From positions 10,511 through 74,510 of the forward strand of contig JAOUJM010000001.1 in the NCBI GenBank assembly GCA_029883265.1: DNA of 64,000 bases. Direction: 5' to 3'. Below, in pieces: positions 48,804 to 64,000 of the stretch (the stretch's first letter is position 1; the number at the start of each line of letters is the position of its first letter). A model generated the notes under the pieces. That model worked only from the letters and a program-made list of their open reading frames with translations. It had not been told where the DNA came from and made no database searches. Source of the DNA: Gammaproteobacteria bacterium. Lineage in GTDB: Bacteria > Pseudomonadota > Gammaproteobacteria > S012-40. The position numbers were made by a program, and so were the translations under genes.

Positions 48804-49538
48804 TTAGTAACTAACATCCATTGTTTCCGAATGATCCATAAGTTTTCGTAGATTGTCCAAACCACTTTTGTGGAGTTGGGATACGCGCGCTTTTGATAAA
48901 CTCATTAACTTGGCTATGGACTCAAAGCTTAGATGATAAAAATAGTGACAGCGTAACACTTCTTGCTCGTTTTCTTTCAATCTGCCGACTAAATCCCGCA
49001 TTTGAGATTTCAAGCGCCGTAGTTCGTCACTGTTATATGGATTACCATCAATTGCCACTGGGTGATCTTCACTGTCAAGTATATAACTGATCGCAAAGTT
49101 TACCGTGGTCTCAACCATTCGCGCAAACACCGACTGTTTAAAAGCCTCCGAGTCCACAGAGGTAATCGATGTTACACGATCGGCCTGGGCCTGCTTGGCG
49201 AAACTATATTGTTTTCGTTTTTCAGTAAAGTTTTGAATACCATTAAGAATGGCTCCTTTGATTCGATAGCTTGCGAAGCTTGAAAATCGTATATTCTTCT
49301 GCCAATCAAAACGATCAATTGACTCAATAAGACCGACGGTTCCCAATTGAATATAATCGTCTAGGTCAATATCATGCTGATTCTGTTTTAAATAAACATG
49401 GGTTGCAGTTTGCCGGACCAAGCCGAGATAGTGACAGATAATTTTATCTCTAACTTTGCCGCATGAATCCGAATCAAGCTGCTGCCACAAATCCAGTTCA
49501 TCATTGATTATCGGTTCTTCCGCTGAAATTGTCATCAT
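48804..49538 (-). CDS. fliA: Sigma-28-like (FliA-type) RNA polymerase sigma factor
   Basis: Region-4 HTH ..LSFESIAKLMSLSKARVSQLHKSGLDNLRK.. 244 aa, adjacent to the flagellar genes. Confidence 0.6.
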   Translation of the reverse strand: MMTISAEEPIINDELDLWQQLDSDSCGKVRDKIICHYLGLVRQTATHVYLKQNQHDIDLDDYIQLGTVGLIESIDRFDWQKNIRFSSFASYRIKGAILNGIQNFTEKRKQYSFAKQAQADRVTSITSVDSEAFKQSVFARMVETTVNFAISYILDSEDHPVAIDGNPYNSDELRRLKSQMRDLVGRLKENEQEVLRCHYFYHLSFESIAKLMSLSKARVSQLHKSGLDNLRKLMDHSETMDVSY

Positions 49539-49550
49539 CCATACAACAGC

Positions 49551-50300
49551 TTATAGAAAACTTCCCATTAATGCTTCAATCACCAAGTTCCAACCGTCAA
49601 TTAACACAAACATCATAATTTTGATGGGCAGAGAAATCATCATGGGCGGTACCATTAACATGCCCATGGACATTAGGATACTCGCCACCACCAAATCGAT
49701 AAGCAAAAAGGGCAAAAAAATAACAAATCCAATTTGAAAAGCGGTTTTTAATTCACTAATCATAAATGCCGGAATCAAAGTGAAATTACTTATTTCTTCT
49801 ACGGTGCCAGGCATTTCTTCTCCCGCCAAATCAATCATCAGTGCAATATCTTTTTCTCGCGATTGCTTAATCATAAATTCCCGGAGTGGTGACATTGCCA
49901 AATCAAAGGCGTGCCCCGGTTGCATTTGATCGTTCATGAAGGGCTGAAACGCTTGCTGGTTAATCTGTTTAAATACGGGCGCCATATTAAACACCGTCAG
50001 AAACAATGCAAGACTAATCAAAACCGTATTCGGTGGTGTTTGCTGCATACCAAACGCATGGCGCAATATGGCTAATACTACGATAATTCGCGTAAACGAT
50101 GTCATAACTACTAGAATGGCTGGTACCAGACTGAGTACAGTCAACCCCAATAATACTTTAAGCGCTGCCGCGATTTCAGTTTTGTCTTCAGCTTTATCAG
50201 CAAATGAAACACTAATGCCGGGCAACTCGATATCGGCCGCTTGAATTTGTCCTGACCAAACAAAAACCGCTAATCCTAGAAATAAAAGCAAAAACTTCAT
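49551..50300 (-). CDS. fliP: Flagellar export apparatus protein FliP
   Basis: Motifs ..VMTSFTRIIVVLAILR.. and ..LMVPPMMISLP.. with a signal peptide. Confidence 0.85.
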   Translation of the reverse strand: MKFLLLFLGLAVFVWSGQIQAADIELPGISVSFADKAEDKTEIAAALKVLLGLTVLSLVPAILVVMTSFTRIIVVLAILRHAFGMQQTPPNTVLISLALFLTVFNMAPVFKQINQQAFQPFMNDQMQPGHAFDLAMSPLREFMIKQSREKDIALMIDLAGEEMPGTVEEISNFTLIPAFMISELKTAFQIGFVIFLPFLLIDLVVASILMSMGMLMVPPMMISLPIKIMMFVLIDGWNLVIEALMGSFL

Positions 50301-50314
50301 GCTTAGGTCTACCT

Positions 50315-50728
50315 TTATAATTCTTGTTTTGCACTTGCTATGGCTGTGACATTAACATGATCACCGGCTTGCGATAATAAAAATGTCTGCTGATCGATTT
50401 CAACCAAGAACACGGTGGTCTTGGTTGATAAACGCTGCGTCTCCAATAATCGTATCCGTCGCCCTCCTGGCGATTGTGCCGATGGTACAAAATTAAAACG
50501 GCGCATTATATAAATTGAAAATACCGCCAACGTAATCGCAATCACTAATCCTACAAACACTTTTGAAACCAATGCAACGGTTATAACCTCGTCTTGCTTA
50601 AAAGGAATTGCTGACGATTCTGTGCGTAACTCGATGCGCTCGTTCTTTTGCAGAGTGCCCGCGGGATCATCAGCAGCCAAACTTAACATCGGCATCAATA
50701 GCAGTAACAACAAAATAGTTTTTTTCAT
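50315..50728 (-). CDS. fliO: FliO
   Basis: Small single-TM protein directly upstream of fliP. Confidence 0.6.
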   Translation of the reverse strand: MKKTILLLLLLMPMLSLAADDPAGTLQKNERIELRTESSAIPFKQDEVITVALVSKVFVGLVIAITLAVFSIYIMRRFNFVPSAQSPGGRRIRLLETQRLSTKTTVFLVEIDQQTFLLSQAGDHVNVTAIASAKQEL

Positions 50729-61676: not shown

Positions 61677-62652
61677 TTCGGCCTCCCACCACAGCCAACT
61701 GATCGCCAGTCACTCTCACTTGATAAATTAAACCGCTGCGAATGTTTTTTACATCAATGTAATCACCCACCTGTCCATCAGACAATGCTTCAGCATCCGC
61801 ATGGATGACAACTGCTCCTTGAGAGACCATGACTTTTAACTTTTCACCTTTGCTTACGGCAGGCAAGACTTCTATACTTCGCCTTGTTAACACATCGCCT
61901 TGTTTCACTGACAAACGCAAACGATTACCTTCAAGTAGGGAAGCTTTATTCAAATGCTCCGGAAACAAGGTAATGTCTTTTTGCTCCAGCAAAAACTGTT
62001 GTGTTGACAGGTGTTGACCGCGATCTAGGTCATGTCGAGCGACATAAACCCAATCCTTAATTTTGACTTCAAACCAAATCGGCACAGACTGATACAATAC
62101 ACTTTGGCTGTGGATATCAACCCAAACACACATACGTCGATGTGGATTCAAGGGCTCAGCTAATCTCACTCGTAAATCATAGGGTGCATCGGGAATCAAT
62201 AAATCTTTTAACAAACTTTTTTCATTGATATTCACTATTGAATATTCTTCACTGAGTGTTTTGTATAGCGCATCATAAGCAGGTTTCAAAATGGTCGTTC
62301 TTGTCAATTTGGTAGCCTTTGTTTTCACTTTTACACTCAACGGGCCCTGCCAATGTATGGATTCGTTATGTAGAACATTAGCTTTCTCCAATTGCGCTTG
62401 GATTTGCAAACGTGCAATAGTCTTGCTTTGCCCAGCAAGCGGTGCCTCGGAGATCATTAATTGTTGCAACAATGCTTTCTCGCTAGTATCAGTGGTTAAA
62501 ACTTCCACAAGTTGTCCTAACATGATCACTGGTGTATTGACTTGCGTATTCGTTAACAACTGTAACTCCACAGCCGCATTGGCAATGCTATGCAGCAGAC
62601 CGAGGAATGCTGTCAATATCAAAACCATTAATTGTCGCTGGTAAAATCTCAT
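61660..62652 (-). CDS. flgA: FlgA (P-ring assembly chaperone, SAF domain), long form
   Basis: C-terminus ..VKQGDVLTRRSIEV...ALSDGQVGDYIDVKNIRSG.. and a signal peptide. Confidence 0.6.
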   Translation of the reverse strand: MRFYQRQLMVLILTAFLGLLHSIANAAVELQLLTNTQVNTPVIMLGQLVEVLTTDTSEKALLQQLMISEAPLAGQSKTIARLQIQAQLEKANVLHNESIHWQGPLSVKVKTKATKLTRTTILKPAYDALYKTLSEEYSIVNINEKSLLKDLLIPDAPYDLRVRLAEPLNPHRRMCVWVDIHSQSVLYQSVPIWFEVKIKDWVYVARHDLDRGQHLSTQQFLLEQKDITLFPEHLNKASLLEGNRLRLSVKQGDVLTRRSIEVLPAVSKGEKLKVMVSQGAVVIHADAEALSDGQVGDYIDVKNIRSGLIYQVRVTGDQLAVVGGRNEDNS

Positions 62653-63428
62653 CGTTTTAAATTATTCACAATTCCCATTAATTCATCAGCGGCTTGTATT
62701 ACTTTTGAATTTATTTCATATGCCCGTTGTGCCAACATCAAGCTTGAGAGTTCTTCGACTAGCTTCACATTGGATGATTCAAGAAATCCTTGTGCGAGCG
62801 TACCACTACCGTTTTCCCCAGGTGTATTATAAATGGCATCACCGCTTTGACGATTTTTAAGATAAAGATTATTACCGATCGGTTCCAATGCTGTTTGATT
62901 GACAAAACTTGCCAACTCCAACTCGCCGAGCTCCATGAGCTCTTGTTCACCCGCAAGTTGTGCCAGCACTTTTCCATTGGGTTTTACCAGTAGCTGTTCA
63001 GTATCACTAGGTACTGAAATCATCGGATTTATCATATGACCATCTGCATTCACCAAGTAATTATCCTGGTTGACACTAAATGCGCCCGTACGTGTATAAG
63101 CAAAACTGCCATCCGGCAAAACCACTTCAAAAAAGCCATCACCATTGATCGCAAAATCATATGGACTTTCGGTCTGTTTCATATCACCGGTTGAAAATAT
63201 TTTTGAGGTGCCAGTAATTGCCGAGCCCAATCCTGAAAATTTTTGTGATTCTACTTGCGTTAGTGGAATAGCGGCCAGGTCATTACTCGATCGGTACATC
63301 AAGTCTTCGAAATCAACCCGGCTCTTTTTAAACCCAGGGGTATTCACATTTGCCAAATTGTTTGCGATCACGTCGATTGCGGTTTGTTGGGTTTGCATGC
63401 CTGTTGCGGCAATAAATAACGAATCCAT
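62649..63428 (-). CDS. flgG: Distal rod protein FlgG
   Basis: MDSLFIAATGMQTQQTAIDVIANNLANVNTPGFK...AQRAYEINSKVIQAADELM. Confidence 0.85.
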   Translation of the reverse strand: MDSLFIAATGMQTQQTAIDVIANNLANVNTPGFKKSRVDFEDLMYRSSNDLAAIPLTQVESQKFSGLGSAITGTSKIFSTGDMKQTESPYDFAINGDGFFEVVLPDGSFAYTRTGAFSVNQDNYLVNADGHMINPMISVPSDTEQLLVKPNGKVLAQLAGEQELMELGELELASFVNQTALEPIGNNLYLKNRQSGDAIYNTPGENGSGTLAQGFLESSNVKLVEELSSLMLAQRAYEINSKVIQAADELMGIVNNLKR

Positions 63429-63439
63429 AATGTTTACTC

Positions 63440-64000
63440 CTATAAATTGCTGCCTAGACTACGAATAGCCGAGTCCATCATTTCGTCATACGTTTTCATG
63501 ACACGTTGCGCTGATTCAAAGTGTCTTGTAGTTGCGATCATGTTAACCATTGCCTGCATGGTATTGACATTTGAGTTTTCCAAATAGCCAGGACGTAGGG
63601 TTAGCGAATCGTCATTGACCGGATGTGGCTCGGCCCCATTGAACCTAAATATCCCCCCGCCTGCTTTTTCCAAGGATGAAACTTCTCCCGTGCTATATAA
63701 CTGCAACTGTGCCACAAGATTATCGCCGTCCCATATGCGCCCTTGCGAATCAATTCTAGGACTGGAGGTGTTTAGCATGATGTCTCCGCTTGTTCCTTGC
63801 ACCGCGTATCCATGCTGGCTGACTAAACGTCCGCTTTGATCAATTGAAAAATTCCCTTGACGGGTAAAAAATGATTGACCGTTTGAATATAATTTGAAAA
63901 ACGCATTTGTTTCAATGGCCACATCGAGAGGATTACCGGTGAACTTGAAAGTGCCGGGCTGCATATCTACCTGTGTAACAAGGCTTTGATTGTCTGGTAA
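63440..64000 (-). CDS. flgF: Proximal rod protein FlgF, C-terminal part (the gene continues beyond the window end)
   Basis: C-terminus ..GYLENSNVNTMQAMVNMIATTRHFESAQRVM.. The M at 63964 is internal. Confidence 0.7.
   Translation of the reverse strand, partial: LPDNQSLVTQVDMQPGTFKFTGNPLDVAIETNAFFKLYSNGQSFFTRQGNFSIDQSGRLVSQHGYAVQGTSGDIMLNTSSPRIDSQGRIWDGDNLVAQLQLYSTGEVSSLEKAGGGIFRFNGAEPHPVNDDSLTLRPGYLENSNVNTMQAMVNMIATTRHFESAQRVMKTYDEMMDSAIRSLGSNL

Follow-up and report, generated by a model that had tools for sequence, protein, structure and literature searches.

A flagellum-type gene cluster with a shortened FliG probably encodes a non-rotary hook-basal body that exports proteins

Hook-basal bodies without flagellin or stators are known from the non-motile cells of Buchnera aphidicola, where they are proposed to be protein exporters. 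Buchnera keeps ordinary FliG, FliM and FliN, and its basal bodies are the outcome of reductive evolution in one symbiont lineage. Here we analysed a 64,000-nucleotide stretch of a contig from a metagenome-assembled gammaproteobacterium (JAOUJM010000001.1; hereafter the window, in the coordinates of which all positions are given) that carries a flagellar-type gene cluster on the minus strand at 48804–64000. We consider it probable that this cluster, which is known here from its genes alone, encodes a complete, non-rotary hook-basal body of the flagellar type that works as a static protein exporter. Sequence comparisons indicate that it is a member of a conserved and widespread lineage in beta- and gammaproteobacteria. 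In contrast to Buchnera, this lineage has a remodelled C ring and extends across free-living bacteria, often beside a normal flagellum.

Lysobacter enzymogenes OH11, which has no flagellum, carries an ‘FT3SS-like system’ (FT3SS, flagellar type III secretion system) in which flgC, flgD, flgE, flgG, flgH, flgI, fliF, fliN, flhA, flhB, fliI, fliP, fliQ and fliR were detected, and for which fliC, fliD, flgK, flgL, motAB, fliG, fliM, fliH, fliJ, flgB and fliE were reported to be missing on the basis of BLAST searches (PMC7277350, PMC7688988, PMC9927559). The strain exports FlgD, heterologous flagellin and antifungal proteins in a fliI- and flhB-dependent manner (PMC7277350, PMC7688988), and the genes have been treated as remnants of a lost flagellum (PMC7277350, PMC7688988, PMC9927559). 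The gene content of this system matches the cluster described here, and the Lysobacter system works as an exporter without a flagellum that secretes non-flagellar toxic proteins; however, no short FliG, FliM-like protein, TPR proteins or RHS neighbour were recognised in it. The list of missing genes is the picture that would be expected if divergent members of such a cluster had gone undetected. In two Xylophilus strains, a ‘third flagellar type’ comprises FlgABCDEFGHI, FlhAB and FliAEFHIJMNOPQR without flagellin; the ‘missing’ fliG and fliK were suspected to be among the hypothetical genes, and FlhA3 was placed as sister to the flagellar class (PMC13436205). Its predicted content is identical to that of our cluster, its distribution is patchy and the placement of FlhA3 is in line with our FliI tree, but the description is a gene list in two strains, with no domain analysis, family survey or functional proposal. 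A literature search found no description of a short FliG, of a remodelled FliM or of a link between RHS toxins and flagellar export. A motor-less variant of the hook-basal body has been glimpsed in the literature but has lacked a definition.

With the canonical flagellum of Salmonella and E. coli, the cluster shares the export gate, ATPase complex, MS ring, rod, L and P rings, hook, hook cap, the NPTH site of FlhB and a sigma-28-like factor, and its FlhA and FliF pass the NCBIfam equivalog cut-offs. It differs in having a FliG without the torque domain, a FliM without the CheY-P peptide or a recognisable middle domain and a shortened FliF tail, in lacking MotAB, FliL, FlgJ, FlgKL, FliD, FliC, FliS, FlgM and FlgN, and in the TPR proteins and RHS giant that are attached to it. 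The injectisome resembles the proposed machine in being a non-rotating type III secretion system (T3SS) that exports non-flagellar substrates. Further likenesses are a C-ring protein with only a SpoA domain (a SctQ-like logic), TPR-type chaperones and a small gene, sctK, in the same slot between the MS-ring gene and fliH/sctL. By contrast, the cluster has a rod, L and P rings and a hook but no secretin, SctD or needle, its FliI and FlhA fall on the flagellar side, and its short FliG matched FliG and never SctK. Judged by its sequences, the cluster has neither the features that mark a rotary flagellum (FliG_C and the inputs of FliM) nor those that mark an injectisome (secretin, SctD and needle).

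Four genes are relevant to the cytoplasmic ring:

57267–58751, minus strand: fliF (MS ring), 494 aa; TIGR00206 at 236.9 bits, above the cut-off
56779–57267, minus strand: short fliG, 162 aa, FliG middle domain and probable N-terminal domain, no torque domain; from the family profile, hhalign and AF2/Foldseek
55990–56745, minus strand: fliH; Pfam FliH, 2.9e-16
51052–51852, minus strand: FliM-like C-ring protein, 266 aa; Pfam FliMN_C only

On the evidence of its sequence relatives, the 162-aa protein is a FliG reduced to the middle domain and, probably, the N-terminal domain, without the C-terminal torque domain. The ATG of its gene at 57267 overlaps the fliF stop codon (TGATG), its own stop lies at 56779, and fliH starts at 56745, only 33 nucleotides after that stop, which leaves no space for a FliG C-terminal domain. 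The first-pass annotation of the window had already described a FliG confined in this way between fliF and fliH. Measured between the stop codons of fliF and the short fliG, the interval in 62 loci is equivalent to 146–256 aa (median 188; a few genes cut by contig ends excepted) and is never near 330 aa. A frameshift or assembly error that hides a full-length FliG is ruled out, as the same 162-aa call is present in independent assemblies from other samples (L001–L003) and short length is common to the whole family. We also rejected the idea that FliG_C is split off and encoded at another place in the locus: tblastn searches of the window and of six related loci gave no coding sequence that resembles FliG_C.

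The protein (‘MAG: hypothetical protein OEZ58_13980’ at NCBI) has no Pfam or NCBIfam match of its own, and both a word-index search and a tblastn search of a short FliG against plasmids found only the query itself. With phmmer against 1.84 billion representatives, at least 444 representative clusters of relatives were found at E ≤ 0.001, the best 150 of which are all 135–250 aa in length. D19, W22, L42 and W109 are invariant in the family alignment, which has the motifs R.AAL.LH.L…DR.W.L..LP, EL..LGIP.D and L..EP….A..L….WPW. Individual members match Pfam FliG_M, FliG_N and MgtE_N weakly (FliG_N in five members, best 3.5e-5). Compared with all PDB sequences, the family profile matches FliG chains only (best E 7e-5), colinear with the N-terminal and middle domains (Aquifex aeolicus FliG 10–88 and 49–188; Salmonella FliG 100–184); for the middle domain (ARM_M), the matches are to FliG_M in 3usw, 4fq0, 3hjl, 1lkv and 8umd, with E-values of 7e-5 to 0.02. 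Alignment with full-length homologues, which the first-pass annotation had proposed as a check, gave the same picture: in hhalign against three canonical FliG proteins, residues 4–134 align to FliG 10–167 of 334, and the C-terminal part is uncovered.

An AlphaFold2 (AF2) model from the single sequence was uninformative (pLDDT 43), and we instead used a 10-sequence alignment, which gave two helical domains at a pLDDT of 75. The top 13 Foldseek matches to this model are all FliG chains, with a root-mean-square deviation of 2.5–3.0 Å for FliG_M alone. A relationship to SctK was considered and rejected, as SctK was matched neither in the PDB profile search nor by Foldseek, and FliI and FlhA are flagellar-side. 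Across 15 unsaturated pairs, dN/dS of the short fliG is 0.16–0.45 (median 0.28), a median that indicates a gene under selection.

FliF, the partner of the short FliG, is adapted as well: in this lineage it has only about 35–45 cytoplasmic residues after the second transmembrane helix. Comparison of five variant with three canonical FliF sequences shows that the tail keeps the FliG-binding helix (…LLLQINHWLEAD…); this helix, with its conserved tryptophan (…ER..L…I..W…), corresponds to the FliG_N-binding helix of canonical FliF. The FliM-like protein has no LSQxEIDALL-type N terminus, that is, no CheY-P-binding peptide, as had been suspected at first sight, and the FliM middle domain is undetected too. 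Profiles of 6 and 30 members align in hhalign only to FliM 207–321 (the SpoA domain, which pairs with FliN), a profile search of the PDB found SpoA domains only, and no FliM middle domain or SctQ N-domain was found with either the 6- or the 30-sequence profile. The N-terminal approximately 185 aa are family-specific, with W30 and W34 invariant.

The remaining genes were identified by Pfam and NCBIfam searches of the translated open reading frames (ORFs) of the window. Between 47101 and 64000 all sizeable ORFs are on the minus strand and packed tightly, with overlapping stops and starts. In the order of transcription they are flgF-G-A-H-I-B-C, fliE-F, short fliG, fliH-I-J-like, fliK-like, flgD-E, fliM-like, fliN-O-P, a sigma factor and two TPR proteins:

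63440–64000, minus strand: flgF (proximal rod), C-terminal part, cut by the window end; 251 aa with Flg_bb_rod, LlgE_F_G_D1 and Flg_bbr_C on an identical contig (L003)
62649–63428, minus strand: flgG (distal rod); Pfam Flg_bb_rod, D1 and Flg_bbr_C
61660–62652, minus strand: flgA (P-ring chaperone); Pfam ChapFlgA, 4.8e-22
61110–61676, minus strand: flgH (L ring), with a plain signal peptide and no lipobox Cys on inspection of the N terminus; Pfam FlgH, 1.2e-48
59960–61108, minus strand: flgI (P ring); Pfam FlgI, 2.8e-115
59515–59910, minus strand: flgB (rod); NCBIfam TIGR01396 at 63.1 bits, cut-off 59.05
59081–59512, minus strand: flgC (rod); Pfam Flg_bbr_C and Flg_bb_rod
58761–59081, minus strand: fliE; Pfam FliE, 2.6e-25
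54650–55993, minus strand: fliI (export ATPase); TIGR01026 at 584 bits and FliI clade analysis
54208–54657, minus strand: fliJ-like, 149 aa; from its position, with no Pfam match for the window sequence
53528–54208, minus strand: fliK-like ruler candidate, 226 aa; putatively assigned from its position
53075–53515, minus strand: flgD (hook cap), short form; Pfam FlgD N-terminal domain, 1.5e-17
51849–53078, minus strand: flgE (hook), 409 aa; Pfam rod/hook domains and TIGR03506 at 238.6 bits
50728–51027, minus strand: fliN; Pfam FliMN_C, 2.3e-20
50315–50728, minus strand: fliO; Pfam FliO, 2.4e-6, and TIGR03500, 2.8e-11
49551–50300, minus strand: fliP (export gate); Pfam FliP, 1.2e-78
48804–49538, minus strand: FliA/WhiG-like sigma factor; Sigma70_r2 and r4, and TIGR02479 at 105 bits, below the 189.6 cut-off
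48206–48763, minus strand: short cytoplasmic TPR protein, 185 aa; Pfam TPR families
47101–48189, minus strand: long TPR protein, 362 aa; full-length orthologues in Ralstonia solanacearum, Burkholderia ubonensis and L014

The family searches thus bear out the order from flgF to fliA that had been read from the sequence, and the Pfam TPR families confirm the two TPR proteins after the sigma gene. It had also been remarked that fliQ, fliR, flhB and flhA do not occur in the window. They are indeed outside it but are not missing, as the window ends there: on the identical metagenome contig (L003) they directly adjoin flgF on its upstream side, just past 64000. With these four genes on identical contigs beyond the window end, the export apparatus is complete. 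FlhB carries the NPTH autocleavage site on that contig, and FlhA scores 800.9 bits, above the FlhA equivalog cut-off of 772.1 in NCBIfam. Together, the genes encode FlhA, FlhB and the FliPQR gate, an ATPase complex of FliH, FliI and the FliJ-like protein, and an MS ring, rod, P and L rings, hook and hook cap. The reported absence of motAB and flagellin genes from the window holds, and extends further: MotA and MotB were found neither in the window nor in the contigs that extend it nor in around 40 related clusters, and no gene for FliC, FlgK, FlgL or FliD is present in any of the approximately 40 clusters examined.

Several of these components depart in detail from their canonical counterparts. 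FlgD is 146 aa here and 125–150 aa in relatives, and only its N-terminal domain is recognised. Throughout the lineage, mature FlgH begins at a conserved ‘SLY.E..Y’ without an N-terminal linker, whereas Salmonella FlgH is a lipoprotein; a lipobox is perhaps still present in FlgH of some relatives. Orthologues of the FliJ-like protein in L017 and L019 have a weak match to PF02050 (FliJ), and comparison with canonical FliJ gives an hhalign E-value of 0.004. An alignment of six orthologues shows that, in the FliK-like protein, a disordered N-terminal region precedes a conserved core of about 55 aa at the C terminus, for which hhalign gives a weak match with the C-terminal domain of FliK (E 0.16).

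In a neighbour-joining tree of the FliI catalytic core, 35 members of the lineage form one clade in 49 of 60 bootstraps; the clade is separated from SctN in all 60 and joined to it in 1 of 60, and its position relative to the canonical flagellar clades is left unsettled by this tree. The nearest solved structure to FliI of the window is Salmonella FliI (374 bits, versus 334 for EscN), and FlhA scores 801 bits against 601 for SctV; both proteins are closer to flagellar than to injectisome structures. The cluster contains no gene for a secretin (SctC), an SctD ring or a needle (SctF), and has L and P rings, rod and hook instead. One locus retrieved as a FliI relative, from Aestuariispira insulae (L012, NZ_QRDW01000020.1), groups with SctN in the tree, has an SctJ-sized ‘FliF’ and is a non-flagellar T3SS.

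The same arrangement recurs in distant bacteria. Loci of distant short-FliG relatives share the gene order, with identical synteny in L014, L015, L017, L018 and L019, as do those of FliF relatives in Ca. Thiodiazotropha and Rhodocyclales. A scan of metagenomes yielded 75 loci; around 35 are long enough to read, and all of these have a common 23-gene order, flhB-flhA-flgF-G-A-H-I-B-C-fliE-F-[short fliG]-fliH-I-J-K-flgD-E-[fliM-like]-fliN-(O)-P-sigma-(TPR). The unassigned ORFs in these loci proved to be FliO, FlgA, FliK, FliH and TPR proteins, with no MotA, MotB, flagellin, FlgK, FliD or FliS among them. Carriers include Marinobacterium ramblicola, Neptuniibacter, Aquabacterium, Massilia endophytica, an Oxalobacteraceae isolate, Chitinimonas lacunae, Ramlibacter and Trinickia fusca. 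In the plasmid collection, the cluster is carried by four plasmid or megaplasmid replicons, those of R. solanacearum (megaplasmid), Variovorax sp. PDNC026, B. ubonensis (pMSMB2035) and Undibacterium sp. YM2. For every component, lineage orthologues outscore canonical flagellar proteins against the window protein. A scan of the genome collection with FliI found only canonical flagellar or injectisome loci, at 44–49% identity.

Individual loci vary around this plan. A ginger/Curcuma subset of R. solanacearum has the whole cluster and a 4442-aa RHS giant on the megaplasmid, besides normal flagellar genes; in MAFF 211491 (L095/L096; megaplasmid AP024102.1, 522574–560002) most of the cluster genes are annotated as ‘hypothetical protein’ and the ATPase as a member of the EscN/YscN/HrcN family. 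In the two loci closest to the window, those of Ca. Thiodiazotropha CDECU1 (L018) and a metagenome contig (L070), an extra gene with a Flg_hook (FliK) domain lies between flhA and flgF (L018:3013–4536 and L070:1532–2851), and L018 also has a 90-aa FlhB-C-terminal-like gene there; both are absent from the window lineage. Undibacterium YM2 (L098) has fliH downstream on the opposite strand, a rearrangement that is also present in L033 and L046.

The sigma factor is the last core gene in every locus, and what follows it is also shared. The long TPR protein has a full-length orthologue in R. solanacearum (E 1e-27), and all tblastn matches to it in the plasmid collection lie in records with the cluster. 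The short TPR protein of the window is a paralogue of the short TPR protein of L003, L019, Ralstonia and B. ubonensis. In L003 this is a 207-aa protein, orthologous to those of L019, Ralstonia and B. ubonensis and encoded upstream of fliQ on the opposite strand (region L003:3532–4502). Beside it is a 111-aa Ser/Asn-rich ORF without a family match, and both are divergent from the cluster; nothing was found in support of this ORF as an anti-sigma factor. We also considered the TPR proteins as class II or SctY chaperones, and obtained only generic TPR cross-matches below the cut-offs. Small ORFs near the cluster, considered as FlgM or FlgN, have no family match. Within the window the sigma-28 consensus is not enriched (24 matches versus 22.6 expected), and neither are the sites sought in a sigma-70 and terminator scan.

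Downstream of the TPR genes, the window contains a candidate for the cargo of such a machine:

21847–41001, minus strand: giant RHS-repeat protein, 6384 aa, candidate cargo; from Pfam and from homologous giants beside related clusters, with a putative functional link
21095–21823, minus strand: ankyrin-repeat protein directly after the RHS gene, possibly an immunity protein; Pfam Ank families
46980–47429, no strand assigned: copy of a 450-bp direct repeat, comprising the 3′ end of the long TPR gene and 121 bp downstream; 98.9% identical to 41065–41514
41065–41514, no strand assigned: copy of the 450-bp direct repeat, with 64 bp between its end and the RHS start codon; 98.9% identical to 46980–47429

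Pfam finds RHS_repeat in both halves of the giant (2.7e-68 and 4.9e-47), together with DUF6531 and LysM. It has a conserved N terminus (MVAITNGEGLGL…) and a lipase-like C-terminal end with GHSLGG; no PAAR domain was found by Pfam, nor a Sec signal at the N terminus, nor a VgrG, TcB or TcC trafficking module. Giants with the same N terminus (a motif of 35–40 aa, M[VTS][AGS]I..G..[LS]GL…S….G..G…VY.N..GNL..Q) follow the sigma and TPR genes closely and in the same orientation in L014 (51% identity over 70 visible residues), R. solanacearum (4442 aa, 25 RHS repeats and LysM), Variovorax and B. ubonensis (4897 aa, 19 RHS repeats). In Undibacterium YM2, a 12,900-aa relative annotated as a ‘tandem-95 repeat protein’ is located just upstream of fliQ. 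A giant RHS protein therefore adjoins the cluster in six lineages, the window included, and does so in every cluster with at least 5 kb of readable flank. The C termini differ among homologues (GHSLGG here and HExxH in Ralstonia, both by eye), without a match to a toxin-domain family. We also asked whether the RHS N terminus mimics those of rod and hook proteins, and abandoned the idea when hidden Markov model scores fell below those of shuffled sequences. In L015, the C terminus of a PT-HINT polymorphic toxin lies directly upstream of flgB.

In the window, the RHS gene and the long TPR gene are 6 kb apart. The repeat copy at 41065–41514 places a piece of the 3′ end of the TPR gene in front of the RHS gene, and the pair of repeats shows that the RHS gene originally started about 185 bp past the long TPR gene, the intervening 5.9 kb being a later insertion. 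The insert contains three ORFs (42370–46089), encoding a 491-aa protein with a signal peptide, a 310-aa protein with a lipobox (LLGC) and a 424-aa protein with a lipobox (LHAC) and DUF6973, and no related sequence was present in the other loci retrieved. Positions 1–41001 form a polymorphic-toxin island that comprises the RHS gene, the ankyrin protein, a TNT-domain toxin (17834–18817), two IS66 transposases (7647–9185 and 19554–21044) and around 20 small ORFs without family matches that resemble orphan immunity/toxin cassettes.

In flagella, FliG_N anchors FliG to FliF, FliG_M bears the FliM-binding surface, FliG_C bears the torque helix that interacts with MotA, and FliM and FliN bind FliH. 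From these roles it follows that the short FliG would join a reduced C ring to the MS ring. It would dock on the tryptophan-containing C-terminal helix of FliF and scaffold a ring of FliM-like protein and FliN whose sole role is to provide FliH–FliI with a docking and sorting platform, and which generates no torque. As the FliK-like core and the NPTH site of FlhB are both kept, a substrate switch after hook completion is still implied, in which the ruler candidate and FlhB autocleavage would redirect export to late substrates; such substrates should therefore exist, and would be non-flagellar. The FliA-like sigma factor and the two cytoplasmic TPR proteins would control and chaperone them. The giant RHS-repeat polymorphic toxin is the best candidate substrate, and this is the least certain step.

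The output of the machine is likely to be protein export. That it is a non-rotating export or hook-basal-body machine, one of two possibilities raised by the first-pass annotation, is supported by a FliG that aligns to the N-terminal and middle domains only, by around 40 clusters without stator or filament genes, and by an intact gate, ATPase complex, rod, L and P rings and hook. A more specific assignment, with the RHS toxin as late substrate and the TPR proteins as its chaperones, is one that we put forward tentatively; within it, the conserved ‘MVAI.xGxxLGL…’ segment may be the export signal. It is a possibility of the same modest order that the lineage represents type III machines of a third functional class, in which a flagellum-derived hook-basal body does not rotate and is devoted to the export of giant RHS polymorphic toxins.

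Several observations weigh against these readings. The lineage is supported by sequence and model evidence, from genes alone, and motAB, fliC and a full-length fliG could be present elsewhere in the source genome and might co-assemble with the cluster products. For the short FliG, the PDB match over the N domain is marginal by itself (8 bits) and the Foldseek E-values are weak (best 0.055); the ring architecture around the N-terminal domain of the FliM-like protein is conjecture. Identity with the Lysobacter and Xylophilus clusters is suggested by gene content only. Some copies of the cluster decay, as flgI is split into two ORFs, and may be a pseudogene, on pUYM01 of Undibacterium sp. YM2 (L098). 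With regard to the toxin, replicons that lack the cluster also encode giants of this family in R. pseudosolanacearum RUN2279, Eleftheria terrae and Undibacterium KW1, the 1.3 kb that can be read past the sigma gene of Ca. Thiodiazotropha (L018) contain no giant, and the RHS N terminus is unlike that of rod or hook proteins.

The reading that survives best beside ours retains the static hook-basal body and gives it another output: a surface stalk or adhesion organelle, or a secretion-coupled signalling device in which export of an anti-sigma factor releases the FliA-like sigma factor, with the RHS adjacency reflecting shared mobile islands. The classical flagellar checkpoint works by export of FlgM; the invariant position of the sigma factor as the last core gene and the RHS giants that occur without a cluster also fit. 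The Lysobacter system, moreover, influences twitching and HSAF production (PMC7277350, PMC9927559). Against this, there is no recognisable FlgM-like gene, the sigma-28 consensus shows no enrichment in the window, a giant RHS gene lies beside the cluster in six lineages, and the 450-bp repeat restores the sigma–TPR–RHS order in the window. Chance co-residence is unlikely because the arrangement of sigma, TPR and giant RHS genes recurs across lineages, and overall we regard an output of this other kind as rather unlikely.

The main alternative to a static exporter is a working rotary flagellum that borrows its missing parts (FliG_C or a full-length FliG, MotAB, FlgKL, FliD and flagellin) from elsewhere in the genome, such as the primary flagellar system. 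Several hosts are flagellated and have a normal flagellar gene set too, R. solanacearum megaplasmids have two FliF places, and the Xylophilus strains with an FlhA3 cluster all have a type-1 flagellum (PMC13436205). However, the cluster has a dedicated short FliG of its own that is conserved under purifying selection, and likewise a FliM-like protein of its own, which has no CheY-binding peptide and no detectable FliM middle domain; non-flagellated Lysobacter keep what is apparently the same set without motAB, fliC, flgKL and fliD (PMC9927559). Mixed assembly with a canonical FliG is also made less likely by FliF, whose shortened tail co-varies with the short FliG family. We therefore judge borrowing to be improbable.

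A flagellar locus in decay, in which fliG has been truncated, fliM damaged and the genes for filament and stator lost ahead of complete loss, was the other possibility raised at first and can be rejected as very improbable: genes without family matches are many (FliG, FliJ, FliK and the FliM N-domain), the surrounding island is rich in IS66 elements and toxin cassettes and one relative has a split flgI, but the 23-gene order and the short-FliG length class are kept in dozens of distant loci of beta- and gammaproteobacteria, the short FliG retains invariant residues at a dN/dS of around 0.28, the large genes are all intact and tightly packed, and the FliI sequences are monophyletic in a clade of their own.

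If the static exporter is what the cluster encodes, the ‘leftover’ flagellar genes of non-flagellated Lysobacter would be explained, as would the orphan third cluster of Xylophilus and of some R. solanacearum, Burkholderia, Variovorax, Massilia and lucinid-clam symbionts. As annotation pipelines label most of the diagnostic genes ‘hypothetical protein’, such genomes may be counted as carrying motility genes. The short FliG would be a natural separation-of-function allele that keeps MS-ring docking and C-ring scaffolding and drops torque, through which the export role of the C ring would be testable on its own. For large RHS toxins without a PAAR domain or signal peptide, the cluster would offer a candidate export route, a new means of RHS delivery beside the type VI secretion system, Tc and Sec. 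Flagellar basal bodies would then have become fixed secretion devices at least twice, in the injectisome and, independently of it, in this lineage, which would have retained the rod, the L and P rings and the hook in its conversion.

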